This document shows positions 43,701 to 64,000 of a stretch of DNA of 64,000 nt, in pieces (position 1 is the stretch's first letter; each line of letters begins with the position of its first letter). Below the pieces are notes generated by a model. The model saw only the letters and a list, made by a program, of their open reading frames with translations. It was not told the origin of the DNA and made no database searches. Source of the stretch: an uncultured Chlamydiae bacterium (lineage in GTDB: Bacteria > Chlamydiota > Chlamydiia > Chlamydiales > JAJFMA01); NCBI GenBank assembly GCA_963790215.1, contig CAWBNS010000010.1:2572-66571 (forward strand), given 5' to 3'. The position numbers and the translations under genes were made by a program.

Positions 43701-43706
43701 TTGATC

Positions 43707-43985: not shown

Positions 43986-44001
43986 ACACGCTCCTTAGAG
44001 T

Positions 44002-45524: not shown

Positions 45525-46351
45525 CCGGCAAGCTGCCGCAACATATCAGGTGTCACACTGGGAATAGGTTCATTAGAAAGATTGCTCTTCAACATATTCG
45601 CTCGACCGGTCGGCAGAATTCGTGAGATATGCCAAATCATGTCTTGGCTACACCCAGAAAGAGCTTTTCCCAATCGAGCCAAACCTCGCAGATGGATCTG
45701 TTTGCGCAGCTCCCCACAATCTCCCGTCCAATTGCGCAGATCCAACCGAGGCACGGTGAATTTTTCTTTCTGAAACATATAATGTTTCAACATCTTCAGT
45801 TCATCCACCTTCAAGCAACGCAATAAGATTTGCTGATTCGTTTTGTTTACAATATGACGCAATTCCGAAGCCAAGTCACGCAAACCCAGCAGATCAATTA
45901 AAGCGTGCATCTGATGTTTGTCATAAGTGAGAAGCGGACTCAAACCCGTCGTAGGAAGCCATTGCGCCGGAAAACGCCGCGAAGCCAATACTCTCTTAGA
46001 CATCGTCGCCAGCAAAAATTCCTTCATCGCAGGAGAAACAATTTTTTTAGGTATGTCCCGTCCTAACGATTGACACAAACCCGCCGCGTTGCCAGGTGTT
46101 AAGGAAGCAATCATCGCCTCTTGCAACGGAGTGGACACATCTTTCACCAACGGAACCAACCAAGTGTAGTGCAACTGTTGCATCTGCACTGCAGGATCCC
46201 CCACAACAGGATCAACGTCCTTCGAATCAATGGTGAGACGCTTTAACCGCTTGAAATCGCTCTCAGGCAAAAAATTGCTAAGACTGTCCGCAACACCACC
46301 TTGAAAGCGGTTAAGCAACACTCGAAATAGAACCCAGCCTTTGGCCTGCAT
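45485..46351 (-). CDS. conserved T3SS-cluster protein (position of chlamydial CT560; possible SctK-like)
   Basis: 288 aa, lying between sctJ and sctL as in Chlamydia. The assignment rests on synteny only. Confidence 0.55.
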   Translation of the reverse strand: MQAKGWVLFRVLLNRFQGGVADSLSNFLPESDFKRLKRLTIDSKDVDPVVGDPAVQMQQLHYTWLVPLVKDVSTPLQEAMIASLTPGNAAGLCQSLGRDIPKKIVSPAMKEFLLATMSKRVLASRRFPAQWLPTTGLSPLLTYDKHQMHALIDLLGLRDLASELRHIVNKTNQQILLRCLKVDELKMLKHYMFQKEKFTVPRLDLRNWTGDCGELRKQIHLRGLARLGKALSGCSQDMIWHISRILPTGRANMLKSNLSNEPIPSVTPDMLRQLAGCMKFLKTQGTLS

Positions 46352-46384
46352 GAATGACTCCCGCCAGAGTTGTGTATCCCCACA

Positions 46385-47474: not shown

Positions 47475-48533
47475 TTACGGCAACGTATACCACGTGGCGC
47501 GCCCCTTCCCATGACGCAGCAACAAGGAAGCCGTAGTTAAATCCGAAAGGTGTTTTTTAATCGTATTACGGCTTGCGCCAGTCAACTTTTCCAGATCTGC
47601 GATTCCCAAACGGTGGTGATCAGCCACAAACTGAATAAGTTGAGCCGACAATTGAGAGACTTCCATGCTCAGAGTTCTCTCGCGCGAAATTTTTTGTTCG
47701 AGCCGACGTTTTTGCTTTTGTAATGCTCGCAGAAAAAACAAGAGCCAAGGAGTGAAATCGGGCTTTGCCTCTTTGAGCGACTGCTGCGTTCGCCTCAGTG
47801 CGATATAATAGCTGTCCTTGTTTTCTTCTATGACACTCTCGAGAGAACTATAGGGCACATATTGGTACCCCTGTTTTACTAATAACAAGGTAGTGAGACA
47901 ACGAGACAACCGACCATTTCCGTCCTGGAAAGGATGAATGGCCAAAAAGATCACGATAAACAAACCTATGACTAGAAGAGGATGAAGAGAACGAGTTTCA
48001 AATGCCTCTCGTGTCCAATACATGAGTTCTTGCATCCTGAGAGATGTTTCAAAGGGCGATGCTGTCTCAAAGATAATACCCATGCTTTTTCCATTCTCAT
48101 CAAAAGCCTGAACATCATTGTTGAGTTTTTTGTACTCCCCTCTGTGACGCTGATCCTTGTCTGAATATTGCAACAACCATTGATGCAATTGCTTCACGGA
48201 ATTTTCAGTAAAAGGGATTGCCTCAAAAGAGGAAAAAATCTGGTCGCAAACATAAGCATAACCCGCGACTTCCTGCTCATCACGGGTTTTCAATGATCGA
48301 TTTTCAATCTGTAGTAATAATGCCTCAACTTGTCGATCCGTCAACCTGGCCCCTTCGATCCGCGTGGATGACCCGACACTCTCAATAGTTGCGACAGTGC
48401 GCAAAGCACTCAATCTTTCGGGCGCGAGCCGCCCAATCAACTGCCAAACACCTTTGAATTCGTCAATTTCCGCCACCAACGACAGCATTTCGGGAGTGAT
48501 TATTAGCAGTGAGATATCCATAGATTTACCCAA
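47475..48533 (-). CDS. Fic family protein (AMPylase-type motif) with C-terminal winged-helix
   Basis: 352 aa. It has the Fic motif HPFQDGNGRLSR and an upstream inhibitory-helix-like STRIEGA, matching (S/T)xxxE(G/N). Confidence 0.85.
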   Translation of the reverse strand: MGKSMDISLLIITPEMLSLVAEIDEFKGVWQLIGRLAPERLSALRTVATIESVGSSTRIEGARLTDRQVEALLLQIENRSLKTRDEQEVAGYAYVCDQIFSSFEAIPFTENSVKQLHQWLLQYSDKDQRHRGEYKKLNNDVQAFDENGKSMGIIFETASPFETSLRMQELMYWTREAFETRSLHPLLVIGLFIVIFLAIHPFQDGNGRLSRCLTTLLLVKQGYQYVPYSSLESVIEENKDSYYIALRRTQQSLKEAKPDFTPWLLFFLRALQKQKRRLEQKISRERTLSMEVSQLSAQLIQFVADHHRLGIADLEKLTGASRNTIKKHLSDLTTASLLLRHGKGRATWYTLP

Positions 48534-48655
48534 TTTTATCCAATTATATCCAATTTGGTCTGAAAAAACAAGTAAGGTTGTTGCAACAGGAAAACCCTCG
48601 AAGAGGGTTTTCCTGTTGCAACGAATTTACTATCAATTGCATACGCATCAGCCCA

Positions 48656-49476: not shown

Positions 49477-50667
49477 ATGTTGATGCGAACCCTACTTCTC
49501 ATTTTTCTCTGTGCTCTCACAGCCGGTTACCCCGCGAATAGCTTCGCACGCCCTGCGAAAGACGGATCAGCTTTTCGTTTTCGATCGGCTCCTCTTCATC
49601 AAGCGATCGTGGAGAAACGGCTTGATCAGGTGCAGAGGATACTGAACACAGGGATCGACCCCAATGCTCGCGCCCCTGGTGGCGAGACAGCATTAGAAGT
49701 TGCGATCGATGCTGCACAGACCTCCCACGATGCCTTTCTGATGGTGCAAACATTAGTCAAGGCCAGAGCTGATGTAAACGCCATCGGGGCAAACGGGAAA
49801 ACCCCATTGACTCAAGCACTCACGCTTGGTTTACCTGATGTTGTTCGATTGTTACTCGATGCCGGAGCCAACCCTGATAAACAGGATAAGGAAGGCACTG
49901 TTCCAATCATGATCGCCATCCAGAAGCATCAGAACGCATTGATCGACGAATTCCTCAAAGCCAAAGCCGGTTTAAATGCAGTAAATAACCAAGGCGACAC
50001 ACCTCTTCTTATCGCGTTAAAAAATAACGAACCAGACGAAGCCGGCAAATTAATCATCGAGGGCGTCGATGTAAATATCATCGATACCAACGGACTTTCC
50101 CCTCTCATGCTTGCCGCTCAAAAAGGCCTGTACAGCATTGTAGGTGTGCTTGTCCTCTCAGGAGCCGATGTCAACCTGCCCTCTCCCGCTACAGGACGCA
50201 CTCCCTTGGACTATGCTGCCGAATCCGCGAATAAAGACCTGGTCGACATGTTTCTCACCTACGGAGCCGATGTGAATGCCGACGATAACGAAGGCAAACG
50301 ACCGCTCTACTACGCGATTGGAGCTACTCCTAAACATGCGGAAGTCGTTGACCTACTGTTAACCCAGGGTGCAAAGGTTAACATCGCCACAGCGACCGGC
50401 GAGACACCACTTCACAGAGCAGCGCAAATAGGAAACGTTCGCATCATAGAACTCCTCATCCGAAGCGGTGCCAAGATGGAAACAGATGATAGTCAAGGAC
50501 GCACAGCCCTTTACGTCGCTGCCCAACATGGCAACCTCGACGCAGTCAAAAAACTGGTCGAAAAGGGAGCCAAAGTCAATGGCAACCCTCCACCTCTCAA
50601 CGGGGCCGTACTCAGTGGAAATGAACAAGTCATCCACTACTTAATCGATAACGGCGCTCATCTATAG
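49477..50667 (+). CDS. ankyrin-repeat protein with N-terminal signal peptide
   Basis: 396 aa with about 10 ANK units (G.TPL..A......vv.lLl..GA.vN). Confidence 0.85.
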   Translation: MLMRTLLLIFLCALTAGYPANSFARPAKDGSAFRFRSAPLHQAIVEKRLDQVQRILNTGIDPNARAPGGETALEVAIDAAQTSHDAFLMVQTLVKARADVNAIGANGKTPLTQALTLGLPDVVRLLLDAGANPDKQDKEGTVPIMIAIQKHQNALIDEFLKAKAGLNAVNNQGDTPLLIALKNNEPDEAGKLIIEGVDVNIIDTNGLSPLMLAAQKGLYSIVGVLVLSGADVNLPSPATGRTPLDYAAESANKDLVDMFLTYGADVNADDNEGKRPLYYAIGATPKHAEVVDLLLTQGAKVNIATATGETPLHRAAQIGNVRIIELLIRSGAKMETDDSQGRTALYVAAQHGNLDAVKKLVEKGAKVNGNPPPLNGAVLSGNEQVIHYLIDNGAHL

Positions 50668-51249: not shown

Positions 51250-53259
51250 TTAACCCAAATCAACTTCTAGTTGCTCATAGTGCTTCAGCTGGTCTCTGTA
51301 ATGTGCAGCATCTTCAAAACGCAACTCTTTAGCCGCTGTTTTCATTGCCGTGGCGCATTCCGCAATCTTCTTTCTGATCTGATCTGAAGTGAGGTATTCC
51401 TGGTGAGATTCAGCCGCTTTGCGTGCATCTGCGCCGCCTTCGCCGTAAGAAATTTCTTCTTCAACTTCTTGGATCAAGGGAGAAATACCTCTAGACACGG
51501 TTGTAGGAGTAATTCCATGCTCCTCGTTATACGCTTGTTGTTGGGTTCGACGGCGGTCGGTAGTGGCAATCGTATTGCGAATCGCCGCCGTCATTTTGTC
51601 AGCATACATAATGACGCGACCTTTATCATTTCGGGCCGCTCGTCCACACGTCTGAATCAAAGCCGTCTCACTGCGCAGAAAACCCTCTTTATCAGCGTCT
51701 AAAATAGCGACCAAGGATACTTCGGGTAGATCCAATCCTTCTCGCAAAAGGTTAATCCCGATCAATACGTCAAACACACCCACGCGTAAGTCTCGAAGAA
51801 TTTGCATGCGCTCTACGGTATCAATGTCCGAGTGCAGATATTTGGCTTTTACGCCTAATTCCAACAGATATTTAGATAATTCCTCAGACAAACGCTTAGT
51901 CAACGTCGTCACAAGTACCCGACCACCAGCAAGTGTATGCTGACGAATCTCATGCAAACAATCGTCCACTTGCCCCTCAGCAGGACGCACCTCGACAACA
52001 GGATCCAGCAGACCTGTAGGTCGCACAACCTGCTCAATGATCACATGCCTCGCTTCATTCACCTCCCATTCAGAAGGAGTCGCCGAAACATAAACAGCCT
52101 GATTCAATTTTCGATACCACTCCTCAAACATCAAAGGACGGTTATCATAAGCCGAGGGCAAACGAAATCCAAAATCCACCAATGTCTGTTTGCGCGACCG
52201 ATCTCCGTGATACATCGCTCGTACCTGCGGAACAGTCTGGTGAGATTCATCCACAAAGATCAGAAAATCCTTCGGAAAGTAGTCCAGAAGACAAGCTGGA
52301 GGCTCTCCTGCCAGTCGTTTGCCGAAATGACGCGAGTAGTTTTCGATCCCTTTGCAGAATCCCACCTCCTTGATCATTTCCAAATCGTACATCGTACGCT
52401 GATGGATGCGCTCCCGTTCGAGAAGCTTGTTCTCTGTTTCGAAGAACTTAAGACGTTCGGCAAGTTCGAGTTTGATGGTCTCCATAGCAAATTCACGCAC
52501 CTCTTCAGGAGTGACGTGGTGCGAGCTAGGATAGATAGTGATGGAGTCGATACGCCGCAAAACCTTGCCTGTGAGCGGATCTATCTCGCTGATACGCTCT
52601 ATCTCGTCACCGAAGAACTCTATGCGAATAGCGAGCTCATCTTCATAAGCAGGAAAGATATCAAGCACATCGCCGCGCACACGAAACGTAGAACGGTGAA
52701 AATCGTAGTCATTGCGTTTGTATTGCATTTCCACAAGATGAATAAGCAATTCGTCGCGTCGCCGTTCCTGGCCGACAGTCAAGGTAAAACGCATCTGCAT
52801 ATAGTACTCAGGCATACCCAAGCCGTATATGCAGGAAACAGAAGCTACAATGAGCACATCATCTCGCTCTAATAAAGAACGTGTAGCGCTCAGCCGCATC
52901 TTGTCGATTTTTTCATTGATCGCCATGTCCTTCTCAATGAAAGTATCTGTACGTGGTACATACGCTTCGGGCTGATAGTAATCGTAATAGGAGACAAAAT
53001 ACTCGACAGCATTGTCGGGGAAAAAGGACTTAAATTCTTGATAGAGCTGTGCAGCGAGAGTTTTGTTGTGAGCCATCACCAAGGTAGGACGCTGTATCTG
53101 CGCCACCACGTTGGCCATGGTAAACGTCTTACCAGAACCCGTTACACCCAGCAACACCTGTGCCTCTTTACCCTGGCGAATTCCCTCCACAAGCTTCTGA
53201 ATCGCTTGCGGCTGGTCACCCGCCGGCAAATACGGTGTTTTTAGTTCAAATCGTGACAA
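51250..53259 (-). CDS. uvrB: excinuclease ABC subunit B
   Basis: 669 aa. It has Walker [11 protein letters not shown] and the C-terminal UVR motif [14 protein letters not shown]. Confidence 0.95.
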
Positions 53260-53304: not shown

Positions 53305-53697
53305 CTAAAGTGTAATAAAGACATAATTTGTCAGGGATACAATTACCCAAGGAGTACTTGGGATTTGGCGCACCAGAGAAGGCTGAGCCGCCGCAGAGGG
53401 CTGAGATTTTCGTTCCGGGTTTGCATCATAAAATTGAGGTACGATGTGCGAGCCAAATACACACCGCCCTTTATCGACAGCCCTATCCCACCAAGACGGT
53501 CCTGAAGGCTCTCGTGATAAAGGCTTAGTCGACCGATTAGCTCGATTTGTGTCATAAAGTGACGAACTACCTGTCCCTGCACCAAGCAAACCATACGCAT
53601 CGAAATGCGTTAGGGGGCTATTTTTGACGTAGGCGTAGAGATTAGGGCCGTCGGCGAAGCCGATGGGGTCGGGTGTTGTCCAACGACCTGTTGCAGG
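53305..53697 (-). pseudogene. orphan Rhs core-end fragment plus short C-terminal region, 5'-truncated
   Basis: It encodes ...ATGRWTTPDPIGFADGPNLYAYVKNSPLTHFDAYGL. About 105 bp (53594-53697) are nearly identical to 59139-59243 of the main Rhs gene. Homology stops exactly at the repeat junction 53697/53698. Confidence 0.8.
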
Positions 53698-54095
53698 CAT
53701 ACGCATCAGGCTAAGATAAGTTTTTGATGCTTATATAATTGATAACAAGTTTGTTGCGAAAGGAAAACCCTCGTAGAGGGTTTCTGAATGTAGCCCACCG
53801 TGAACCTTGCGAGCGAAGCGAAGACAGGTGTAACGGTGGGAAAATGCGCCGAAAACCTATTGCACCCCCGAAGGGGCGTGCCTCAAGCTATTCACAATCA
53901 ACGATCTGAGGCACTTTCGTTCGAGAGTGCGGGGGCTATTGTGCGCTTATTCCCACCGTTACACCTGTCTTCGCTAACGCTCGCAGGTTCACGGTGGGCT
54001 ACATTCAGAAACCCTCTACGAGGGTTTTCCTTTCGCAACAAGCTTGCTATCAAATATATGCGCATCAAAAACTTATCTTAGCCTGATGCGTATGG
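53698..54095. mobile_element. about 400 bp MITE-like palindromic element, copy 2
   Basis: Same termini and arms as 16140-16536. The right flank again begins GGATGAGCAGG. Confidence 0.7.
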
Positions 54096-54247
54096 GATGA
54101 GCAGGATCGTCTGCGGCGGCGGGATGATCGTTGTCCGTATAACCCTCAGAGAGAGTTTATGGAGCTTGGGCATGGATTGGCTTGCAGGCGCTGCTCTTTC
54201 AAATCCACTGCTTCGCAGTAATGACTTACCCTGACTTGGAATCCCTG

Positions 54248-54279
54248 AATCGCACATCACAGCTCCGGCCCCTTTCACT
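54248..54279. repeat. Rhs-locus junction motif, copy
   Basis: AATCGCACATCACAGCTCCGGCCCCTTTCACT. The minus strand reads GGAGCTGTGATGTGCGAT. Confidence 0.7.
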
Positions 54280-54316
54280 ATAGCTCTTTCGCAAAGGGGT
54301 TTCCTGCAAGACTTCA

Positions 54317-54688
54317 TCATTTGTTGTCTGTCTTGATCGAAGTGCCATCCTCCAAAATAATATCTCGACAGACTACTTCTATAATGCTTAAGTTATCGAT
54401 ATCTTTCAAAGAAACAAGGTTGTAAAATTCACTATTCAAAGTTTCAAGTTCTTGTATTTTTTGTCCATGCATATTAGGATCTAAAGGTTTTTTATATAAT
54501 CCCTTAATATAGTCTCCTGGTTGATAATTTAAATATATTAAGTCTTTAAACTTGATGTTTATTTTTTTTCCATTCCATAAAATTATATTTACAGAAAGCA
54601 ATTGGGTTGAATCCTCGAGTCTAAAACTTAATAAAGAGGCGTCGGCTAACGAAAAATCTAAATCCAGGGGAGTCCAATCTTGTTCCAT
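54317..54688 (-). CDS. orphan immunity-like protein
   Basis: 123 aa, AT-rich, with no adjacent intact toxin. Its N-terminal pattern (W.P/D..L.....L) resembles that of the 57971..58327 immunity candidate. Confidence 0.5.
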   Translation of the reverse strand: MEQDWTPLDLDFSLADASLLSFRLEDSTQLLSVNIILWNGKKINIKFKDLIYLNYQPGDYIKGLYKKPLDPNMHGQKIQELETLNSEFYNLVSLKDIDNLSIIEVVCRDIILEDGTSIKTDNK

Positions 54689-54726
54689 TTTTTTTACACC
54701 TTAACTCATCGACGATATGTTCTACT

Positions 54727-54758
54727 AAATCGCATCGCAGCTCCTGCCCCTTTCACTG
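54727..54758. repeat. Rhs-locus junction motif, copy
   Basis: AAATCGCATCGCAGCTCCTGCCCCTTTCACTG. It lies about 40 nt upstream of the 54688 start. Confidence 0.7.
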
Positions 54759-54835
54759 ATTCAGTAAGGATAATCTAAATCAACAAGTTCTTTTTCTCTT
54801 ATCATATCAACTTTATATCCTGCAGAAAATAATAT

Positions 54836-55051
54836 CTACGATTTCTTTATAAGGATAAATATACAAATAAGTATTGTCAACACAGCTTGAATGGTGGTTT
54901 CCGTTAGAGAAATTGATTCTGGTAGGTCGAGTTTTTCAAAATTGACTTCAAAATCATGGGGAACCGAACCGAATAGAAAAAAATCTCCCCATTCGAATTG
55001 TTGAACCGATTTGAATTCATTCACAAACTCAATAGGAATAGCTCCAGTCAA
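54836..55051 (-). CDS. hypothetical small protein (cassette remnant?)
   Basis: 71 aa ORF with a TTG start and a C-terminal hydrophobic tail. It is out of frame with the ORF just upstream. Confidence 0.3.
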   Translation of the reverse strand: MTGAIPIEFVNEFKSVQQFEWGDFFLFGSVPHDFEVNFEKLDLPESISLTETTIQAVLTILICIFILIKKS

Positions 55052-55056
55052 ATCAG

Positions 55057-55251
55057 TTAAAAAACATAATTTATATTGATTGCTTTTAACAGAAGGTTTA
55101 CCAGATCATAAACGGATTTTCCTGGAAGCGCTTCTGGATCTGTAATTACAAGTAGACTCCAGGAGTTAGATTTATTCAATTTTTTAGTCATGCAAATACC
55201 TAAAGAAAACGTCTTCCGAAAAATCTGGGATAGAGTGTGCTCCGCTTTCAA
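55057..55251 (-). CDS. hypothetical small protein (cassette remnant?)
   Basis: 64 aa ORF with an internal ATG at 55188 (MTKKLNKSNSW...). Confidence 0.3.
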   Translation of the reverse strand: MKAEHTLSQIFRKTFSLGICMTKKLNKSNSWSLLVITDPEALPGKSVYDLVNLLLKAININYVF

Positions 55252-55410
55252 CGCTATTAGAGAGAGAGAGCGGGGTGAAAATGGGGACTAAAGTGATCAT
55301 GTCTTCCGTGAGATGTCACATCTGTTCACCCCTTAAACACGCCTCTATTGTCGAATGTAGATCCTTGTATATATGATCTCTACCCACCGCCCTCTCCATT
55401 TGGAATTTCT

Positions 55411-55653
55411 TCAGAGAACGGTTTTCGCGCGCGCGCGATATCGTTTTGAAGAGGCTCCAAAATTTTTAAAGTTTTCTATTGCTTCGTTGAGGCTTTCTGG
55501 ATTTGCGCCACCGTGATAGTTTGAGTCGTGAAATTGAGCCTCATCGTCCTCCCAACCACAGACGTTACAAATTTCAAACGTCCCAGGGGGGCAATCAGAT
55601 AAAGTTAAGAAACCACAGCAAGGGCATGGATATCCTTTTTTACTTAAACTCAT
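55411..55653 (-). CDS. CPCC-family cysteine-rich protein; immunity candidate by position
   Basis: MSLSKKGYPCPCCGFLTL...FEICNVCGWEDDEAQ matches the Cys_rich_CPCC pattern. Its ATG lies 2 nt after the TGA of the degraded toxin frame upstream. Confidence 0.7.
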   Translation of the reverse strand: MSLSKKGYPCPCCGFLTLSDCPPGTFEICNVCGWEDDEAQFHDSNYHGGANPESLNEAIENFKNFGASSKRYRARAKTVL

Positions 55654-55655
55654 TA

Positions 55656-56266
55656 TCAATACCTAGTTTCGAAATAATGCAGACCATCGGTTGGTTTAAA
55701 GAAGGTTTTTGGAACTCCATCAGAGGTGTAAACGCCAAATTGGTTACTTTCCACTTCATAAAGGATAATATCACCAGTTGGTCGGACTTTAACAGAGGTT
55801 GCATTAGAACGAGAATGAAAAAACTCGCGAGCTTTCTCAACTTATTGTTTTGCATTATATAATTCTGGAAATTCTGCAGAATGGCTTTTCCAATGTTGGT
55901 ACGCGTTTTGAAGAGGTTTTTTTTCTTGGTTGCATTCCAGATGGGCTTACCTATATCACTTTTTGCTATGTTTGTTTCGCAAACGGTTGCATTTATGGTG
56001 GTTTTAAGAATTGGTGTTGCTGTTCGACTGCTTTGAATCGCAGCAGCACCCCCCATCGTGGCAACCATGCTGAGACCGCCATCAATGAGATGAGCGGCTT
56101 CCGGTGGAATGCCAGCTGTCTGGAGACCTTGAGAAGTCATTGTCTCCTTTGCTTCACCTGAAAATAGTGTTTTCATTCCTGCAACGAAGGACCATCGATG
56201 AATAAATCGGTTTCCTGCTGGACGAATTCTCCTGTCACTACATTGACGCAGCCATGCCCAGTGCAA
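55656..56266 (-). pseudogene. degraded orphan toxin module: Rhs N-terminal fragment fused to a distinct C-terminal toxin-like domain
   Basis: 56180-56266 duplicates 63470-63545 of the main gene and encodes HGCVNVVTGEFVQQETDLFIDGPSL. Downstream, a coherent domain (NAYQHWKSHSAEFPELYNAKQ*VEKAREFFHSRSNATSVKVRPTGDIILYEVESNQFGVYTSDGVPKTFFKPTDGLHYFETRY) is reachable only by a frame change at an 8-nt homopolymer (55917-55924). It also contains an in-frame TAA (55843-55845). Confidence 0.7.
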
Positions 56267-56267
56267 A

Positions 56268-56486
56268 TCATTTGATTATCCAGGAACAGCTAGTCGTATA
56301 ATATTGAATATCTGTGAGATAGAATATCCTCGCCAGCCGTCCTCTCTGTACACGACAAAAATTGATCTAGTAAGGTTGTTGCGACAGGAAACCCTCTTCG
56401 AGGGTTTTCTGTCACAACCAACTTTATCAATTATATAAACATCAAAAACTTATCTTAGCCTGATGCGTATGGGTCAGTCACCTGCG
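56268..56486. mobile_element. ISAs1-family remnants with a MITE-like insertion
   Basis: 56268-56345 matches the transposase 5' region 32392-32480. 56474-56486 (GGTCAGTCACCTG) matches the ISAs1 right IR. The MITE-like arm (AAACCCTCTTCGAGGGTTTT ... GCCTGATGCGTATG) lies between them. Confidence 0.7.
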
Positions 56487-56500
56487 ACCATATGTTCTGT

Positions 56501-56535
56501 CAAATCGCACATCGCAGCTCCGGCCCGTTTACTCA
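56501..56535. repeat. Rhs-locus junction motif, copy
   Basis: TCAAATCGCACATCGCAGCTCCGGCCCGTTTACTC. The minus strand GGAGCTGCGATG opens a 12-codon ORF that runs into the IS remnant. Confidence 0.7.
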
Positions 56536-56544
56536 TCCTTTAGA

Positions 56545-56767
56545 ATTAGTTTTTGTGTTCGGGCATCGAAGTTTTGGATGGTTAAAGGATCATAAATGCA
56601 CAAGGTTATTTCCTTTTATAATCTTCATCGGAAAGATGAATGTGGTCGCCTGTTGGGATCTTCAAGAAGTTGTTCAGCATAGCCAATCAATTGTCGCATT
56701 TCATCTGTTGTTAACAGTAACATAATGCTACCCAGTTTTTTATCAAACTCGTCATCTAAAATTCGCA
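56545..56767 (-). pseudogene. small immunity-like gene, apparently frameshifted
   Basis: MRILDDEFDKKLGSIMLLLTTDEMRQLIGYAEQLLEDPN continues in another frame as GDHIHLSDEDYKRK. Both pieces fall below the ORF-track cutoff. Confidence 0.3.
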
Positions 56768-56789
56768 TACTCTTCCTTATTCAATCATG

Positions 56790-56809
56790 TGTGAAAGGGG
56801 CTGAAGCTA
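56790..56809. repeat. Rhs-locus junction motif, partial, inverted orientation
   Basis: GTGAAAGGGGCTGAAGCTAC. Confidence 0.5.
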
Positions 56810-56832
56810 CTTCAATGCCTTCGATGACCCCT

Positions 56833-57180
56833 TCATCTTAACGGAAAGAGATCAAGCAACTCTCCTCTTAGTATTGGATTGATAAGATCAGGTTTTGAAG
56901 CCATAATTTGATGAAAAACTATCCTCTGCACAACTGGAATTAAAGAGTCGAATTGAATTGGGTCAAACCAATCCAATCCGATGCAAATTTCTCCAATAGA
57001 TTCGGCACAGTTGTCCATAATAAATTTATCTTCTGTGGGATCAGAAGCTATTTTTATAAGAGCGTTTAACGCTCGCAAATCCAAATATCTACCTAAGTCG
57101 ATTGCAGCATCGTCTCTTTCGTCTTCTCGCGCAGTTTTATCTAACAAGATATTTATAAGTAATTCGATCTGATCCTTCAT
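56833..57180 (-). CDS. immunity candidate (helical, HEAT-like)
   Basis: 115 aa. Its ATG at 57180 directly abuts the TAG (57181-57183) of the toxin-like frame upstream. Confidence 0.6.
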   Translation of the reverse strand: MKDQIELLINILLDKTAREDERDDAAIDLGRYLDLRALNALIKIASDPTEDKFIMDNCAESIGEICIGLDWFDPIQFDSLIPVVQRIVFHQIMASKPDLINPILRGELLDLFPLR

Positions 57181-57558
57181 CTAATTCCTTAACAAATAAT
57201 TAGCTTCTAGAGGCAGATGAGTTCCAATTTCTTTGCCACCTGTTTGTCCACTAAAAGGATTAATATAACTTTGACCACTCGAATCATGGTATAGGCGAGA
57301 GTCAAACCTCGGCATTCCGCTTTTTTCATGAAGCCCTAAACGATAACTGCCTTCCGGTTTTACGACCAATCTCCATTCAAACTTATCGCTGCTATATACT
57401 CCCCATCGCTCAGGTTTTCCTAAAGAATTGGGTTCCTTAATCCACCCCTTACTTTTAGCCCAGCTTCTTAGAATTCGTATATTGGTTTGACCAGTTTCAG
57501 AAAGATTTTTAGCGGCATAATGAAAGCGATTTAGGTTGTTAGCTACCTGAGACTCTTT
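57181..57558 (-). CDS. toxin-like C-terminal domain lacking its own canonical start
   Basis: The frame is open from 57558: KESQVANNLNRFHYAAKNLSETGQTNIRILRSWAKSKGWIKEPNSLGKPERWGVYSSDKFEWRLVVKPEGSYRLGLHEKSGMPRFDSRLYHDSSGQSYINPFSGQTGGKEIGTHLPLEANYLLRN. The only start-like codon is the TTG at 57369. The frame is the same as ORF 57562..57870. Confidence 0.45.
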   Translation of the reverse strand, partial: KESQVANNLNRFHYAAKNLSETGQTNIRILRSWAKSKGWIKEPNSLGKPERWGVYSSDKFEWRLVVKPEGSYRLGLHEKSGMPRFDSRLYHDSSGQSYINPFSGQTGGKEIGTHLPLEANYLLRN

Positions 57559-57561
57559 CTA

Positions 57562-57870
57562 TCATCTTAGGTCTGGAAGTTTAAGTTTTTCGAGGCAATC
57601 GTGGATTCCTTTTGTAGCTTCCACAATAAAAAATTGGCCTTGTTGGTCTATGTCAACGTAACCTCGGTCAAGCATCACGCTATATACTTCTTCTAAAATA
57701 CAGACGAACTCATGAACCCGCTGTTTCCATCCTTGCGGCGCATTTTCGATGGCGTTCAGCAAAAAATCTACGTCACCAATGAAGCTGCTGAGTTTTAACT
57801 CTCCGCGTTCGAACGCAGCAAGTTGAAGCTTCATTTTTCTCAATTGACGTGCATCGGACTTAGAAATCAT
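57562..57870 (-). CDS. small helical protein (immunity-like, or N-terminal module of the downstream toxin-like domain)
   Basis: 102 aa. It ends in TGA followed directly by TAG, after which the same frame continues open. Confidence 0.5.
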   Translation of the reverse strand: MISKSDARQLRKMKLQLAAFERGELKLSSFIGDVDFLLNAIENAPQGWKQRVHEFVCILEEVYSVMLDRGYVDIDQQGQFFIVEATKGIHDCLEKLKLPDLR

Positions 57871-57887
57871 TTGACCCCCGGAATAAC

Positions 57888-57955
57888 AGTGAAAGGGGCC
57901 GGAGCTGCGATGTGCGATACGATAAAAAAGAGGCTGCAGCTCCGGCCCCTTCCAT
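57888..57955. repeat. Rhs-locus junction motif, inverted pair forming a hairpin
   Basis: AGTGAAAGGGGCCGGAGCTGCGATGTGCGAT (57888-57918) pairs with GCTGCAGCTCCGGCCCCTTCCAT (57933-57955). The stem AGGGGCCGGAGCTGC / GCAGCTCCGGCCCCT is 15 bp. Confidence 0.75.
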
Positions 57956-57970
57956 TGGCCCGGGCCTCAT

Positions 57971-58327
57971 TCAATCAATTTGAAATCGTTTAGCAAAAAT
58001 GTTTATGATTCCTCCTGTGGAATTAGTTTCCAATCGAAAGTGGACGAGACTACCTATTTCGGCGGACCTCCACTTATCAATAATAAGCTGTAATTCGGGG
58101 GACTTGTCAAAACACTGAGCTACCAGTATCGATTCCGACGCGACCACCCCAAAATTCATATTCAGCTGCAACGCGTAACAATCCAAAAATAGGACGGTAG
58201 ATACCACTTCTTCCTTAGGCCACTGGACTAATAGTTCGACGGTGTCAACTATACCAGGATTTCTCCTATCTATTTGTAGAGAAACAAGAGCGGCGTCATG
58301 CCAGGGTAATTCATTAAAGGAATTCAT
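57971..58327 (-). CDS. cognate immunity candidate of the main Rhs toxin
   Basis: 118 aa. Its start overlaps the last 14 nt of the Rhs gene. Confidence 0.65.
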   Translation of the reverse strand: MNSFNELPWHDAALVSLQIDRRNPGIVDTVELLVQWPKEEVVSTVLFLDCYALQLNMNFGVVASESILVAQCFDKSPELQLIIDKWRSAEIGSLVHFRLETNSTGGIINIFAKRFQID

Positions 58328-60485
58328 GGAAAAATCCGGGGTTTTTCATTCCTGGTTCGGGACTGTAATGAGTGCCTTTACCGTCGAGATGATAGTGGGA
58401 GTTATTTGGTCCTTTCATTCCTGGCGGTGTTGCAGGATCTATTCTTAATTTTTCCACAAATTTACCGTTGATGTATTCCCCATAACTCCCGCTTCGATGG
58501 GGATTTTCTACATAGTTTCTTGGGATTTGATACTTAGACTGTGCTGGAAGAGCAACACCGTCTGGAGTTACATTAATTTGTTCTGAGCTTGGATTACAAA
58601 CATCTTTTACACCTTGCTCCTCCTTCCCAAAAATCCTTCTTGCAACTCTAACTACTTTATCTATTCCTCGAACAGCTCTGGGAAGGATTTTGGCAGTAAA
58701 GGTTGCTGCAGCTTTTTCTTGACCAACAGCGGGGGTAAAAAGAGCTCCAATAGTAAGCCCCCAACCCACGAGACAATTGGTGAAACGATAACTCCGGTCA
58801 TTCGGATTAACACCATAATCACTCTCGACCTGTTGCCTAATGGTGCTAAGATTATTGACTCTAAATTGCTCAGACTCCTCTATGTTGTGCAGGACTCGGT
58901 CCAGACTAAGGGAATTAATGCTAAGGCTTGTTTGGATGTCGTAATACGCGTTAGTTGCGAATTCTCTGCAAGCACGAGTACAGGCAGCGCTGACCGAGTT
59001 GAAAAATTCTCCTTTCCTCGCGCCTGCTTCCGAACCACTTGACCTTCTAGTCTCTCTGTGCTGCGACCTATGAGCTTGATTCGTTTCATAAAGTGAGGAG
59101 TTACCTGTTCCTGTTTCGTATAGTCCATACGCATCGAAATGCGTGAGAGGGTTATTTTTGACGTAGGCGTAGAGATTAGGGCCGTCGGCGAAGCCGATGG
59201 GGTCGGGTGTTGTCCAACGACCTGTTGCAGGGTCATAGTAACGTCTCCCAAAATAAACCCAGCCACTTTCGGGATCGTAGCGCTTGCTGGAAAAATGCCA
59301 CGGATTGGTAGTGCCAGACCCATAACGCTGTTGCTCACCAAAAGCGCTGTAGACATAGCCTTCGGCAAATTGTTTGGCTTGTAGGTCTATGAGTACAGAA
59401 ACGTGACCGCAATGATCATGAATCGGAATGTAAATGCGATTCTCTAGCTCAAGAGCCACTGCCGCACCGATCTCAGCACCTTTACCACGACCGAGAATGC
59501 GCAGCTGCACAATTTTGCCTCGCTCATCAACCATGCCAATCTCGTTTTGGTCGATGTAGAGATAACGCTCAACTGATCGAGGCGAGTGTTTGGCAATGCG
59601 TCGATTAAACGCATCGTATTGGTAGGTGTATTCATTGCCATTGCGGCAGAGAGTAGTAAGACGGCCTAGCGCATCATACGTGTATTCAGAATGATCTGTA
59701 GGACTATCCTGGGCAATCAGATTTCCGCGTTTGTCGTAGGTGTAGGTCGTTTCTTCGAGTTGAAGCAACTGGTTCAGATGGTTGACTGTGTGCTCTTTAT
59801 TGTCGCGCAGGCGTCGGTTGTAGAGAGAATCATAAGTATATTCATGTGCATCAAATCCAGTGATCGTTTCGGATTTGAGTTGATAGAGGGAATCGTAACT
59901 ATACATGCAGTGTGTGAGACGCTCTGGGTCTTGACGACTTTTGTGGAGAAGGTTGCCGACGGCATCGTAGCCAATTTCTGGAATGGTTTCACTAAAGTAG
60001 GTAGATTCGATCGTGCATGGGCGATTTAATAGATCCCAAGAATAGGAAATTTTGCCGATCGGAGTATTCTCTTCGAGAAGTACTCCAGAGAGGTCATAGG
60101 AAGAGTACTGATGCTCATAGCCATTACGCGATACGGTTTTGAGATGCCCTGCGGTATAGGTGTAAACAATGTGAGTGGCATCTGGAAGCGTAATTTGAAG
60201 GGGTCTGTTTAAGGCATCGTACGAATACTCGAGCGATAGGCCATTGGCTAGCGTCTCGCAGATTATGCGGTTGTTGTCATCGTAGAGACGTTGAGTCATG
60301 GTTTGAGTAAGCGCATCTGTCACGTTGAGCACGTTGTTGTTTAGATCGTACTCGTAGGTATAGTCGAAGGAATTGTCTGAAGCATAGTAGCGCTGCAGAC
60401 GACCCAGGCCATCGGTAGGTATGCAGAAGAATGGTGCCATCTGGGAGGCAAATCGACTCTTTCTGGCCGAGTGAATTAAAGCCAT
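58314..60485 (-). CDS. Rhs/YD-repeat toxin, C-terminal part (repeats, core end, C-terminal toxin domain)
   Basis: It has YD repeats (YTYDALGRL, YQYDAFNRR). The core end is YFGRRYYDPATGRWTTPDPIGFADGPNLYAYVKNNPLTHFDAYGL. A roughly 270 aa variable tail ends ...RIDPATPPGMKGPNNSHYHLDGKGTHYSP.... The real junction with the upstream part lies near 60415. Confidence 0.85.
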   Translation of the reverse strand: MALIHSARKSRFASQMAPFFCIPTDGLGRLQRYYASDNSFDYTYEYDLNNNVLNVTDALTQTMTQRLYDDNNRIICETLANGLSLEYSYDALNRPLQITLPDATHIVYTYTAGHLKTVSRNGYEHQYSSYDLSGVLLEENTPIGKISYSWDLLNRPCTIESTYFSETIPEIGYDAVGNLLHKSRQDPERLTHCMYSYDSLYQLKSETITGFDAHEYTYDSLYNRRLRDNKEHTVNHLNQLLQLEETTYTYDKRGNLIAQDSPTDHSEYTYDALGRLTTLCRNGNEYTYQYDAFNRRIAKHSPRSVERYLYIDQNEIGMVDERGKIVQLRILGRGKGAEIGAAVALELENRIYIPIHDHCGHVSVLIDLQAKQFAEGYVYSAFGEQQRYGSGTTNPWHFSSKRYDPESGWVYFGRRYYDPATGRWTTPDPIGFADGPNLYAYVKNNPLTHFDAYGLYETGTGNSSLYETNQAHRSQHRETRRSSGSEAGARKGEFFNSVSAACTRACREFATNAYYDIQTSLSINSLSLDRVLHNIEESEQFRVNNLSTIRQQVESDYGVNPNDRSYRFTNCLVGWGLTIGALFTPAVGQEKAAATFTAKILPRAVRGIDKVVRVARRIFGKEEQGVKDVCNPSSEQINVTPDGVALPAQSKYQIPRNYVENPHRSGSYGEYINGKFVEKLRIDPATPPGMKGPNNSHYHLDGKGTHYSPEPGMKNPGFFHEFL

Positions 60486-63400
60486 AGGCAGTGGTTTTTT
60501 GCTCAGGTGTGTCTTTAGCTTCGGTTAGTGTCGTTACGCGTCCCATGGCGTCGTAAACCCACTCCGTGACGATTTTGCGGTCGGGTAGGTTGGGTGCCAT
60601 GGCTGTGTCGCATTGGCCAGTCTTATGGCCAGCTAAATCATAGGTAAATGTGCTATGTGCACGGGTGATTCCCAAGATGTCTTTGCGAAGCTGCTCTGTA
60701 ACCTGACCAACAGAGTTTTGCGTGGTGATGGTTTGATTGCCTAAAGCGTCCGTCACGGTTGTGGTGAGAATGCCGTGAGTCAAGTCTTCGTCATATTCGG
60801 TAACAGTGATATTCCCTAAAGCATCCGTAACACGAACGGGACGATGGCGGCTATCGTAATCGGTCTGTGTTCTAGCAGTGCCCTGACTGGTTTCTGAGAG
60901 GTGTAAGCAGCAGTTACCACATTGGTCATAGGTAAATTTGTTGGAAGAGATGAGCGATGATTGTTTAGTGATGAGCGAATATTCTTCGACACGTTCTTCG
61001 GTGATACGGTTTAGAAGGTCATATTCCCAGCAGGTGGCACGAGCTGTGGTGTCATCAATATGTTCGAGAGAGCAGCATTTGCGTCCCAAAGTATCGTAAG
61101 AAAGGGTAGTACGTTGAACGCCTTTGCTTGTTTCGATGAGGCGACCTGCACCATCATAGTTGTACTTGGTCTTTATGCCATTGGCATCGACTTCTTTGAT
61201 GATGCGTGTGCCTTTGTACTTGGCACGGGTACAATAGCTGAGATTCTCTCCAGCAATCTGCTTGACAATGGGTCTTTGACAGGAGTCGTAATAGAGGGTG
61301 GTGACGACCTTGTTGGTCGCTGTATGTTGGGTCAATAGGCCATTGCCACCATAGAGAGAGTGTTCCTCTGATCCATCTGGATAGGTAACCAAAATGGGTT
61401 GTCCACGCGCGGTATATGTAGTGCGTGTAATGCCTCCTAACACATCTTGAACCAGGATTTTATTACCTGCGAGGTCGTAGTCAAACTTCTCGATGCCGCG
61501 GATATTATTTACCTGCGGATGTGTAACCGAGGTGATTTCACCCAGCTGGTTATGCTCGTAGAGTGTTTCATTTCCAAACGCGTCTACAGTAGCGGTTTTG
61601 CGATTGCTTAGATCATAGCGATGTGTGGTTTCGTAGCGAGCATGTGGATGGAATTCGGTCTCTTTAATTAGGCGGTTGCGTTTGTCATAGAGGTATTCGA
61701 AGGAGATCTTTTGCTCCACGAGTGTGGTGAGAATGCGATTGCCATTTGCATCATAAGCATGTGTTGTTTTGTCACCTATCGGGTTAGTCTCTTCGAGGAC
61801 TCTACCTGCGGCATCATAAACACGATGCAGGGAATAGCGAAGAGCGCCTTTGGCATCATGGTGATCTTCTTGGATAGGATAGCCATGGTCGTTGTATTGG
61901 TAATGAATCGTGCGTAGCGGGATTTCTCGACCAGATCCGCATTCGCAATATTTTTCCCAACGGGTTAGCGGTTTGCCGAAAGCAGGTGAAAGGGGCGTGG
62001 TGATAGGATCAATTTCGGTTATGGTACGTACAGAGACGTCGGTGAGGTCATTTGAATCACTTCCACTGCCATCATCGACAATATGACGGATTTGATTGGC
62101 GAATTTGTCGTACTCGAAAAATTCACGCTCAATATGTCGAGGGCGACCTTGTAGTTTTGCAATTAGGAGATTGGTGCCTTCTTTATAGCAATACTTAGTG
62201 TAGGAGCCATCATCGCCTTTTTCTTCGGTGATGACATTGAATACGGGGAGGTAGCTACGCTCTGTGGCATATCCTTGTACATGGCCCTCTGGTATTCCAT
62301 TTGCAGTCAACGCAAATTCGGATGTGCCTTGTCCTGTCAGATTGCCGAAAAGGGTTTCACGGGTGATGTTACCGAAGTCATCGTAGATCAAATATTTACT
62401 ATTCAAAGCCTTTCCAGAGGCATCACAGAGGGCTTTAGCCACAAGGTTGCCTGCGGATTTTCCGTCAGTGCCCCAATAGTATTTACTCTGGTGGTGCAGC
62501 TTCAGCTGCGAGAAATGTTGAATGTGAGAAATGCGTCTTTGCGGGTTAATTATGTATCGCGTTATTTCGTCCGAGGCTCCGACGACCTTGCAATAGTTGC
62601 CGCCATAGCTAAAGGTGGCCAAGGGTTTTTCTGAATCAGGTTGATATAAAGCACGCACACGACCTGTTTCATGATACTTGATGCCTACTTCTCTGCCATC
62701 CGGACGGTTTATACTAGTCACTTTTCCTAATGTCGGAATCGTAACCCGGTCTTCAATATAGCGGTATTCAGTTTTAGGGAGGTGGTCTGCTTCTACTTGA
62801 ACGAGACGCCAAAAGGCTTCATATCCGGTCCTATTTTTATCCGTAGTGTACTGAATGGTTTGGCCATTATTGCCTTCGACAATGATAGCTCGGTTGGTAG
62901 GTGTGACGCTGTACGAAGCGATGGGTGTTGTTTCTTCCGCATCTGTCAGCCAGACTTTTCGCAACGTGTCTTTGTCATAGTCATAGAAGAGTTTGGTTCC
63001 GTTGGGTCGGATTTCTTGCGATAGGTTCCAGCATCTTGCTCTTACGCAGTTGTAGATGCGTTTGGTTCCACAGCCAAGCGTGACGGTAAAGGTGCCTTCT
63101 GTACCACTCTTATAATTACGATGCAGAGGAGTGACGTTATGCAGGCTCGTCGCGCCGCTGATGCCCCATGGAGAGTAATTAGTATAACCACGGCTTAGAG
63201 TAGAAGAGCGAACGGAGTATTCCTGACCATCTAAGCCAGAAGGTTTGCCGTTGTGTCGTCCTTGATAGATGAGAGGAACTCCCTCCCTCTCTTCTATCGA
63301 AATGACTGTGGTACCTCCGTCGACCTTATTGCCTTCGTCATCTTTGCCTCGTTTCTTAAACTCATCGAGGAATCTAATTTGTCTTGCAATAGACCAGGTG

Positions 63401-63639
63401 AAGCCGGCACCAAGGGCAGAGTGTACATTGCTATTCCCACTATCGTAAACTCTGCTATGGACTAACGAAGGACCATCGATGAATAAATCGGTTTCCTGCT
63501 GAACGAATTCCCCTGTCACTACATTGACGCAGCCATGCACCAGTGCAAGAACCTCAGCCTCTGGAGCTAAGCGTGAATCGTGCGCGTGGGCCGTGGTGAT
63601 CGCTAGAAATAGAAAGATTTGAAAAACAAATATTTTCAT
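60277..63639 (-). CDS. Rhs/YD-repeat toxin, N-terminal part (signal peptide plus repeat shell)
   Basis: It has the signal peptide MKIFVFQIFLFLAITTAHA and the shell start VNVVTGEFVQQETDLFIDGPSL, followed by dozens of YD-type repeats. The frame is lost near 60415, inside HTY-DGLGRL. Confidence 0.85.
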   Translation of the reverse strand: MKIFVFQIFLFLAITTAHAHDSRLAPEAEVLALVHGCVNVVTGEFVQQETDLFIDGPSLVHSRVYDSGNSNVHSALGAGFTWSIARQIRFLDEFKKRGKDDEGNKVDGGTTVISIEEREGVPLIYQGRHNGKPSGLDGQEYSVRSSTLSRGYTNYSPWGISGATSLHNVTPLHRNYKSGTEGTFTVTLGCGTKRIYNCVRARCWNLSQEIRPNGTKLFYDYDKDTLRKVWLTDAEETTPIASYSVTPTNRAIIVEGNNGQTIQYTTDKNRTGYEAFWRLVQVEADHLPKTEYRYIEDRVTIPTLGKVTSINRPDGREVGIKYHETGRVRALYQPDSEKPLATFSYGGNYCKVVGASDEITRYIINPQRRISHIQHFSQLKLHHQSKYYWGTDGKSAGNLVAKALCDASGKALNSKYLIYDDFGNITRETLFGNLTGQGTSEFALTANGIPEGHVQGYATERSYLPVFNVITEEKGDDGSYTKYCYKEGTNLLIAKLQGRPRHIEREFFEYDKFANQIRHIVDDGSGSDSNDLTDVSVRTITEIDPITTPLSPAFGKPLTRWEKYCECGSGREIPLRTIHYQYNDHGYPIQEDHHDAKGALRYSLHRVYDAAGRVLEETNPIGDKTTHAYDANGNRILTTLVEQKISFEYLYDKRNRLIKETEFHPHARYETTHRYDLSNRKTATVDAFGNETLYEHNQLGEITSVTHPQVNNIRGIEKFDYDLAGNKILVQDVLGGITRTTYTARGQPILVTYPDGSEEHSLYGGNGLLTQHTATNKVVTTLYYDSCQRPIVKQIAGENLSYCTRAKYKGTRIIKEVDANGIKTKYNYDGAGRLIETSKGVQRTTLSYDTLGRKCCSLEHIDDTTARATCWEYDLLNRITEERVEEYSLITKQSSLISSNKFTYDQCGNCCLHLSETSQGTARTQTDYDSRHRPVRVTDALGNITVTEYDEDLTHGILTTTVTDALGNQTITTQNSVGQVTEQLRKDILGITRAHSTFTYDLAGHKTGQCDTAMAPNLPDRKIVTEWVYDAMGRVTTLTEAKDTPEQKTTAYGFNSLGQKESICLPDGTILLHTYRWPGSSAALLCFRQFLRLYLRVRSKQQRAQRDRCAYSNHDSTSLR

Positions 63640-63725
63640 AGCTGTTTATGATAAGACAAACCTGATAACAAGTGGAAGGAAAAAATGAAAAAAACGAGCT
63701 TCCGTCCTTTCATCGAATCGCACAC
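63636..63725 (-). promoter_or_regulatory. candidate leader uORF coupled to the Rhs start
   Basis: GGAG-N5-GTG at 63725 opens 29 codons ((M)CDSMKGRKLVFFIFSFHLLSGLSYHKQL). Its TGA (63636-63638) overlaps the Rhs ATG (63637-63639) as ATGA. The Rhs ATG has no Shine-Dalgarno-like sequence of its own. Confidence 0.35.
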
Positions 63726-63749
63726 CGTAGCTCCGGCCCCTTTTTCATG
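63712..63749. repeat. Rhs-locus junction motif, head-of-locus copy
   Basis: ATCGAATCGCACACCGTAGCTCCGGCCCCTTTTTCATG. It abuts the trpS stop. Confidence 0.7.
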
Positions 63750-64000
63750 ACCCCGATTTTTCTTTACGATCGCGGGCGATGCGGCTGATTTTGTTCCACG
63801 CACCACGTAGACCCATGGCGCTGCGGACCTCTTTCATTGTTTCTTCCGCAGTTTCATTCATGCGCAGAGTTCCTTCATAGACCACTTGCTCGACGTAGCC
63901 CTTGTCCTCAGCAAACTGCTTGCGGCGTTCACGGAACGGATCCAAAAAGTTGTTGAGTGCGACAGCTAATTTTTGTTTGCATTCGACATCGCCCACAGTA
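63745..64000 (-). CDS. trpS: tryptophan--tRNA ligase, C-terminal end (5' part outside the window)
   Basis: GDVECKQKLAVALNNFLDPFRERRKQFAEDKGYVEQVVYEGTLRMNETAEETMKEVRSAMGL follows the TrpRS C-terminal helix pattern (G.lK..l...l...l.P.reR......). Confidence 0.7.
   Translation of the reverse strand, partial: TVGDVECKQKLAVALNNFLDPFRERRKQFAEDKGYVEQVVYEGTLRMNETAEETMKEVRSAMGLRGAWNKISRIARDRKEKSGS

Follow-up and report, generated by a model that had tools for sequence, protein, structure and literature searches.

The 64,000-nt stretch of DNA analysed here (positions 2,572 to 66,571 of contig CAWBNS010000010.1 in assembly GCA_963790215.1, an uncultured Chlamydiae bacterium), hereafter called the window, carries an rhs locus on its minus strand, at a chromosomal position between trpS and uvrB of this Chlamydiota genome. 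The locus is composed of a long Rhs/YD-repeat gene, a small gene overlapping its stop codon and a downstream zone of displaced cassettes; its genes and open reading frames (ORFs) all lie on the minus strand. The rhs gene appears in the assembly as an N-terminal ORF of 1120 aa (60277-63639), which encodes a Sec-like signal, a DUF6531 region and RHS/YD repeats, and a C-terminal ORF listed with 723 aa (58314-60485; real coding from about 60413), which encodes further RHS repeats, the Rhs-associated core and a 267-aa tail. RHS_repeat (PF05593) matched five stretches of the former (E=8e-39) and three of the latter (E=3e-20), and the YD_repeat_2x model of NCBIfam (TIGR01643) matched both as well, with E=1e-24 and 1e-15, respectively. 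The N-terminal ORF also matched DUF6531 of Pfam (E=2e-9). The Rhs_assc_core model (TIGR03696) matched residues 379-455 of the 723-aa ORF (E=2.3e-23), which places the core at 59121-59351, and the core terminates in DAYGL (...PDPIGFADGPNLYAYVKNNPLTHFDAYGL). The N-terminus, MKIFVFQIFLFLAITTAHA/HD, resembles a Sec signal by eye, with K2, a hydrophobic stretch over residues 3-16 and AHA/H, and 17 of 17 homologues inspected begin in a similar signal-like way and continue with the conserved RLAPEAE..LALVHGCVNVVTGEF. A preliminary description, made from the letters alone, had read this region as an Rhs/YD polymorphic toxin locus with a Sec-type N-terminus, a core ending in DAYGL, a tail of about 270 residues and a small gene across the rhs stop codon; the domain searches and the homologues bear out these points, the tail counting 267 residues and the small gene 118 codons.

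The same description took the gene to encode a single protein of about 1840 aa, which did not hold. The rhs span from 63639 down to 58314 is 5326 nt long and leaves a remainder of 1 on division by 3, and an extra C is found at about 60414-60415 (...CATACCTAC[C]GATGGC...), so the gene is not one ORF. Comparison with the intact homologue P0060 placed the frameshift at TAC[C]GAT (60411-60417, minus strand). The true coding of the 1120-aa ORF stops near 60414, its final 45 or so codons being out of frame, and dropping one C restores a single frame of 1774 codons. P0060 itself (1785 aa, 99% identical over residues 1-1075) reads unbroken across the site (...LLHTYDGLGRLQRYY, ...ICLPDGTILLHTYDGLGRLQRYYASDNSF...). 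A programmed frameshift was considered and rejected, as there is neither a slippery heptamer nor a prfB-like site, and the comparison with P0060 indicates a simple indel. The divergence from P0060 rises from 1.4% over aa 1-1100 to 7% over aa 1101-1500. The step in divergence, measured against P0060 and P0105, falls within about 30 codons of the frameshift (aa 1075/1076; aa 1051-1103), which points to a gene-conversion boundary or else to paralogues joined chimerically in the assembly. No other decay is seen in the shell across the 1774 codons, so any disruption is very recent.

It is possible, if on balance somewhat doubtful, that the frameshift is an artefact of assembly or sequencing and that the organism itself has an unbroken, active rhs gene of 1774 aa. 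At least three rhs copies, namely those of the window, P0060 and P0105, have shells about 99% identical over some 3.2 kb while their tails differ; short-read assemblers cope badly with near-identical repeats of this kind, and the step from 1.4% to 7% near the frameshift is how a chimeric join of paralogues would be expected to look. The cognate 118-aa immunity gene is intact, which also fits a working toxin gene. However, the inserted base lies within a CC dinucleotide and not in a long homopolymer, and the remainder of the locus has undergone real decay by stops, truncations and chimeras. The 1120-aa product is also present in the protein collection (P0059), so the frameshift belongs to the deposited assembly.

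The 267-aa tail is unlike the tails of the shell-sharing P0060 and P0105. Its last 90 or so residues matched 58 proteins at 45-76% identity in a word-indexed search, mostly RHS C-termini from Myxococcus, Leptospira interrogans, Planctomycetota, Deltaproteobacteria and a Parachlamydiaceae metagenome-assembled genome (MAG). These residues form the predicted C-terminal toxin domain (58317-58598), which belongs to an unnamed family with the motif GSYGE..NGKF.E[KR]LRIDP.T.PG.KGPN.SHYHLDGKGTHYSP. A full HMMER search of 1.84 billion representatives found the domain in 211 clusters, always at the extreme C-terminus of proteins of 52-2388 aa. In some relatives the N-terminal half of Ntox10 lies upstream of the domain, which itself falls outside the Ntox10 model. 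AlphaFold2, run with a 59-sequence alignment, modelled a small beta-rich domain with a predicted local distance difference test score (pLDDT) above 90 for residues 41-130, and a Foldseek search of this model against the PDB gave no match (best E-value 2.2). The conserved residues include N68, R71, E85, R88, D90, H104, H106 and H113 (model numbering, alignment A2). Because a Glu, an Asp and three His are among them, a metal-dependent hydrolase is suggested, which is only a guess. Readings as an ADP-ribosyltransferase or as an HNH nuclease were discarded, since neither the residue spacing nor the secondary structure fits.

The 118-aa gene (57971-58327) overlaps the rhs stop codon. Its product is without a Pfam or NCBIfam match, as are the tails of P0060 and P0105, and it is 48% identical to its counterparts in two other contigs, one from a Parachlamydiaceae MAG (L082) and one from Myxococcus (L083), whose genes likewise lie across the stop codon of this toxin domain. 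This pairing, conserved across phyla, is the strongest evidence on the function of the gene, and by such synteny the 118-aa gene is identified as the predicted cognate immunity gene. The Parachlamydiaceae contig (JBIRBM010000065.1) is only 3.5 kb long and consists almost entirely of orphan toxin and immunity modules, with two Imm53 genes, the toxin-immunity pair of the window and a core-end orphan, so similar arrays exist in other chlamydiae. The exact 118-aa protein was found again in the Logan assembly of ERR12037361, between a partial 288-aa gene upstream and a partial 92-aa gene downstream, which presumably represent the rhs tail and the 102-aa ORF that follows the immunity gene in the window. 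The locus thus occurs in more than a single assembly.

Downstream of the immunity gene lie 4.6 kb of AT-rich DNA made up of displaced tail pieces and immunity-type genes, which were delimited by reading the minus strand in three frames and by comparison with P0060. An intact 102-aa ORF (57562-57870), which has no Pfam or NCBIfam match and may be an orphan immunity gene by position only, is followed by a start-less orphan toxin domain (57184-57558) homologous to the terminal domain of P0060; its first 38 or so residues are near-identical to that domain and the remainder has diverged. This toxin family is rare, with two proteins in the homologue search. The intact 115-aa ORF immediately downstream of the toxin domain (56833-57180) is a candidate immunity gene for it and shows a HEAT_2 similarity (E=0.007) below the Pfam cut-off. 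Then comes an immunity-type pseudogene with two in-frame stops (56532-56768), which is 46% identical to an intact 81-aa gene lying directly after an rhs gene in the metagenome contig L097. At 56183-56257 there is a copy of rhs codons 34-59 or thereabouts, the start of DUF6531, which is 97% identical to 63464-63538 and is fused out of frame to a tail segment. That segment includes a pre-toxin glycine-rich, hydrophobic linker (55960-56170) near-identical to the P0060 tail (FIAGMNTLFSGEAKETMTSQGLQTAGIPPEAAHLIDGGLSMVATMGGAAAIQSSRTATPILKT) and, frame-shifted against the linker, a pseudo-toxin domain (55659-55946) with an in-frame stop at 55842-55844.

The pseudo-toxin domain matched 8EY4_A, a CdiA-CT recorded as "PT-VENN domain-containing protein", over 84 residues (E=1.6e-19), and the two share the stretches NAY.HW..H..EFPE..NAKQ.V..A..F and FKP..G..Y. 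They differ in setting, as the domain of the window sits on an Rhs-type tail, is broken by a stop and a frameshift, and is followed by a gene for an intact 82-aa Cys_rich_CPCC protein (55411-55659; PF14206, E=7e-25), which is a candidate immunity gene by position. Literature searches on 8EY4 and on CPCC as an immunity family yielded nothing useful. Further downstream, two overlapping ORF pieces in different frames (54839-55287), without a family match, are possibly one frameshifted small gene. They are followed by an intact 123-aa ORF (54317-54688), which matches no Pfam or NCBIfam model and shows a weak resemblance (26% identity) to a 127-aa gene of the L097 rhs locus. The last piece is an orphan rhs core end with a truncated tail (53305-53706), recognised by DNA repeat, by TIGR03696 (E=9e-11) and by its match to P0060. 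Its core at 53591-53697 is 97% identical in DNA to 59125-59231, and the ORF is 96% identical to residues 1470-1552 of P0060 before it runs into unrelated sequence and ends 45 nt before uvrB. It is the only downstream module that keeps a core end.

In the downstream trail, the terminal core-end fragment was correctly recognised in the preliminary description, and orphan material does exist where modules had been listed; the coordinates given there were approximate, most of the modules are not intact genes, and what had been called an elaborate array consists largely of pseudogenised pieces of P0060-related tails. As judged from these alignments, the trail is mostly debris, a mosaic of P0060-like tails and not a tidy array. 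All toxin-coding parts of the locus are disrupted, and the 118-aa immunity gene and the 102-, 115-, 82- and 123-aa ORFs stay open. This contrast could mean that the locus is a functionless relic as a weapon, its immunity-type genes being kept against active rhs paralogues of kin or competitors and its cassettes serving as a recombination reservoir. Every toxin part is broken in one way or another (a frameshift in the main gene, a start-less domain, a stop with a frameshift, a truncated orphan), and intact paralogues are found elsewhere. On the other hand, one of the immunity-type genes is itself a pseudogene (56532-56768), the frameshift of the main gene may be an artefact, and the undecayed shell confines any disruption to the very recent past. 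We regard such a relic as rather doubtful.

The cassettes are bounded by two kinds of repeats. The first is a motif of 29-36 nt with the core AAAGGGGCCGGAGCTGCGATGTGCGATTC, which resembles repetitive extragenic palindromic (REP) sequences and has five copies in the window, all of them within the rhs locus and each between cassettes. A 36-nt copy lies between the trpS stop codon and the rhs start codon (63708-63743, minus strand), and the repeat search found an inverted one at 57892-57927 (plus strand) and further minus-strand copies at 56495-56530, at 54723-54758 (more diverged) and at 54245-54279. Random placement of five copies in 64 kb would confine them to the 10.4-kb locus with a probability of about 1e-4 by our own estimate. 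Folded as RNA, the motif has less structure than shuffled sequence and forms no hairpin, which speaks against a terminator; a known RNA was also dismissed, as Rfam gave no match, and by eye neither a sigma-28-type promoter nor a tRNA-derived att site fits. Scanning metagenomes gave 83 pattern matches, of which 71 were chance matches in high-GC contigs and 12 were contigs of 39-49% GC with a near-exact motif (L089, L096, L097, L100, L106, L108, L124, L127, L144, L147, L149 and L158). Three of these (L100, L097 and L127) have the motif directly upstream of a gene with Y1_Tnp and a DnaA_C helix-turn-helix; in two unrelated contigs (L089 and L108) it abuts the 5' end of orphan rhs fragments, and in L106 and L158 it lies among ordinary genes.

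By this distribution the motif resembles dispersed repeats of the REP type, with a tendency to occur where rhs genes are broken. It shares with REP elements, which have their own Y1 transposases (REP-associated tyrosine transposases, RAYT, or IS200-like) and usually form hairpins, a short length, intergenic dispersal in both orientations and, in related metagenome contigs, the proximity of a Y1_Tnp gene, but it differs from them in having no hairpin, no Y1 transposase in the window and all its copies inside the rhs locus. A bolder proposal is that the motif is the working junction of cassette turnover, being recognised by a Y1 (RAYT-like) transposase, bracketing cassettes and marking the points of rhs truncation. 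We consider this unlikely; if true, motif-driven turnover would be a diversification route additional to homologous recombination at the core end. The second repeat is a 397-nt palindromic element, similar to a miniature inverted-repeat transposable element (MITE), with 110-nt arms that are 95% complementary. Its full copy at 53698-54094 (no strand assigned) lies flush against the point at which the orphan core is truncated at its 5' end, and this copy provides the ATG of the orphan ORF, and a fragment comprising one end lies at 56388-56471 (again no strand assigned). Outside the locus, the repeat search found a second full copy at 16140-16536 and fragments at 4297-4382, 8482-8667, 22246-22275, 42748-42823 and 48571-48650, which makes about eight copies or fragments in 64 kb.

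The Rhs shell has a GC content of 0.475, equal to that of the remainder of the window, and the tail with its immunity gene (0.437) and the orphan zone (0.402) are lower, the orphan core fragment reaching 0.506. Compositionally foreign DNA is thus limited to the tails and cassettes, and the earlier remark that the whole locus is AT-richer than its flanks stands for the tail and orphan zone (40-44% GC) and fails for the shell. The chlamydial origin of the window, proposed before, is well supported. UvrB (51250-53259) is 73% identical to that of Parachlamydiaceae, 69% to Chlamydiae and 65% to Chlamydiia MAGs, the next-best matches being around 60% and from unrelated phyla, and the window also encodes a UPF0242 protein, a Suf operon, a long penicillin-binding protein, a Fic protein and the type III secretion proteins SctJ, SctR and SctT. 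Contamination or misassembly from another bacterium would have been a natural suspicion, as Rhs loci are commonest in free-living bacteria and the GC of the tail zone is atypical, but it is effectively refuted: the shell has the GC of the window, chlamydial genes lie on both sides, the 1120-aa product is recorded on a contig of up to 119.5 kb, the 397-nt element recurs at no fewer than six window sites outside the locus, the immunity protein and its neighbours recur in the independent Logan assembly, and the closest homologues come from chlamydial MAGs. The idea that the locus was inserted into a conserved trpS-uvrB pair is not supported, because the three chlamydial loci found in a genome scan with UvrB have an amino-acid permease, and not trpS, upstream of uvrB. 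A scan for promoters and terminators gave counts no higher than chance.

The rhs gene of the window is not alone. A search with the shell found about a dozen full-length relatives (about 1680-1830 aa) of the same architecture at 46-56% identity, in addition to the near-identical shells of P0060 and P0105. Several full-length relatives share contigs (of 65,104, 158,217 and 247,459 nt), and those on shared contigs probably belong to the window's own assembly. The rhs family thus appears to be expanded, with at least 10 full-length relatives of 46-99% identity. Genomes of such organisms are usually roughly 3 Mb in size, and if at least ten relatives share one genome, they would occupy a notable fraction of it. 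At least one relative, P0061 (56% identity; on a MAG contig of GCA_964445105.1), lies in a chlamydial-type neighbourhood of MreB, a GTP-dependent phosphoenolpyruvate carboxykinase, Mfd and an ankyrin/patatin protein, and is followed by a stop-overlapping gene of 180 aa.

Several other features of the window were noted. The type III secretion genes sctT, sctR and sctJ lie at 42840-47377, 6-10 kb from the rhs locus, and show no evident link to the Rhs protein, because that protein carries a Sec-like signal. A Fic/DOC-domain protein is encoded at 47475-48533. Directly downstream of uvrB, a 396-aa ankyrin-repeat protein (49477-50667) has a signal-like N-terminus on inspection and looks like a typical amoeba-symbiont effector. 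Two convergent DDE transposase genes of the DDE_Tnp_1 family (32324-34314) are a further sign of mobile-element load, and three ORFs of 1415, 658 and 445 aa (9393-13640, 40389-42365 and 4493-5830) gave no Pfam match at E<=1e-5.

Taken together, the evidence is best explained by a Sec-signal/DUF6531 rhs polymorphic-toxin locus with displaced and decayed cassettes that is likely aimed at other bacteria, a reading to which we give a probability of about 0.72. As in Rhs, WapA and TcC biology, the Rhs protein would be exported by Sec, its YD shell would enclose the tail, and the aspartyl protease of the core would cut after DAYGL. The tail would then be delivered into a neighbouring bacterium, where the toxin domain would act, and the glycine-rich hydrophobic segment upstream of the toxin domains may aid passage through the membrane of the target. 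Sister cells would be shielded by the 118-aa protein. Recombination at the conserved core end would bring in new tail and immunity cassettes in place of old ones, and these older cassettes would be pushed into the downstream zone, in which toxins would decay and immunity genes be retained.

The targets are most likely other bacteria sharing the amoeba or biofilm. Competition between bacteria is favoured because the same toxin-immunity pair occurs in free-living Myxococcus, and the molecule that the toxin attacks is for the same reason probably one that bacteria also have. The two uses had been left side by side in the preliminary description, and host-directed effectors acting on the amoeba or an animal cell are in our view quite unlikely. 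An obligately intracellular lifestyle would suit them, the 2012 census suggested a role against the host for polymorphic-toxin-like proteins that come without immunity genes in intracellular bacteria (PMC3482391), and type III secretion genes are 6-10 kb away. But immunity-type genes are abundant in this locus, one of its orphan toxins belongs to the CdiA-CT class, which bacteria use against each other, and the apparent Sec signal speaks against type III export, to which the occurrence of the pair in Myxococcus has to be added.

Some observations do weigh against an active locus aimed at other bacteria. The main rhs gene is frameshifted in the assembly, so this copy may make no full-length toxin, and the main tail is without a Pfam, NCBIfam, PDB sequence or fold match. 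No outer-membrane or delivery partner is visible among the window ORFs scanned, and a diderm chlamydial cell adds an outer-membrane step for a Sec-exported Rhs protein. Finally, an organism inside an inclusion has limited contact with competitors.

Rhs proteins are not new to the phylum, and the novelty that had been attached to an Rhs locus in a chlamydia falls away, as RHS or polymorphic toxins of chlamydiae were published in 2009, 2012 and 2019. RHS-family proteins are among the predicted chlamydial outer-membrane protein clusters (Heinz et al. 2009, PMC2811131). The polymorphic-toxin census of Zhang et al. (2012, PMC3482391) lists chlamydiae repeatedly, both for RHS repeats and Sec export (its "T2SS" class) and for many RHS-linked toxin and immunity families, and it considers whether intracellular bacteria turn such proteins on the host or on competitors. 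Koenig et al. (2019, PMC6520448) mentioned polymorphic toxin domains of Protochlamydia in the context of competition with Legionella, and the genome paper of Estrella lausannensis, whose GC content of 48.2% is close to that of the window, does not mention Rhs (PMC4333871). The locus is therefore real, well supported and ordinary, and the understanding of Rhs systems is unchanged by it. Its value lies in documenting that an obligate intracellular lineage carries a polymorphic toxin locus whose toxin-immunity pair is conserved. This supports the view that environmental chlamydiae encounter other bacteria and compete with them, as may happen when amoebae are co-infected. The locus also yields two candidate pairs; in one, the 118-aa protein partners the unnamed "SHYHL" toxin domain, and in the other a HEAT-like protein partners the rare domain of the P0060 type. 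The point of wider interest is the delivery route across the chlamydial envelope.

As compared to the known systems, the locus has the repeats, core, variable tail, adjacent immunity gene and core-end orphan of Rhs polymorphic toxins, and what it lacks of them is an uninterrupted reading frame. Pfam scans covered the rhs ORFs and 30 other ORFs of the window (most of those of at least 150 aa) and found no PAAR, VgrG, TcA/TcB or TpsB, in agreement with the earlier statement that no such partner is present. Within the same ORFs there was no PAAR, VgrG or other type VI secretion domain that would indicate a type VI Rhs effector, and no SpvB, TcB or TcA domain of a Tc (ABC) toxin, the likeness to TccC and YenC2 being limited to the generic YD-shell and core region. 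Neither TpsB, nor a CdiA with haemagglutinin repeats, nor a VENN motif of a CdiA/CdiB system was found. By its predicted domains the locus is a member of the Sec-signal Rhs class, and not of the type VI, Tc or contact-dependent inhibition (CDI) systems. It has in common with the enterobacterial-type Rhs loci of E. coli, Salmonella, Dickeya and Serratia (Poole et al. 2011, PMC3150448; Zhang et al. 2012, PMC3482391) the YD shell, the DxxGL core, a variable toxin, a stop-overlapping immunity gene, core-end orphans and AT-rich tails. Unlike those loci, it is frameshifted, has a Sec-like signal and DUF6531 and lacks PAAR, VgrG and a type VI context, and only one of its orphans keeps the core end, the others being deeper fragments and chimeras.

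WapA of Bacillus subtilis and the RHS toxins of the "T2SS" class have a signal peptide, where the window protein has a Sec-like N-terminus, and likewise a DUF6531-type region, an RHS shell and a C-terminal toxin with an immunity gene, and WapA, which Pfam lists in the DUF6531 family, is also without a dedicated secretion partner gene. The difference is that the host of the window locus is a diderm chlamydia, in which an outer-membrane step is needed, and that no wall-binding domain was found in its protein. The earlier reports on chlamydial RHS proteins concern the same phylum and protein family and raise the same hypotheses of competition versus host effectors, but they are family lists without a description of this locus; the new points here are a paralogue family that appears to be large, the toxin-immunity pair and the bounding of the cassettes by repeats.

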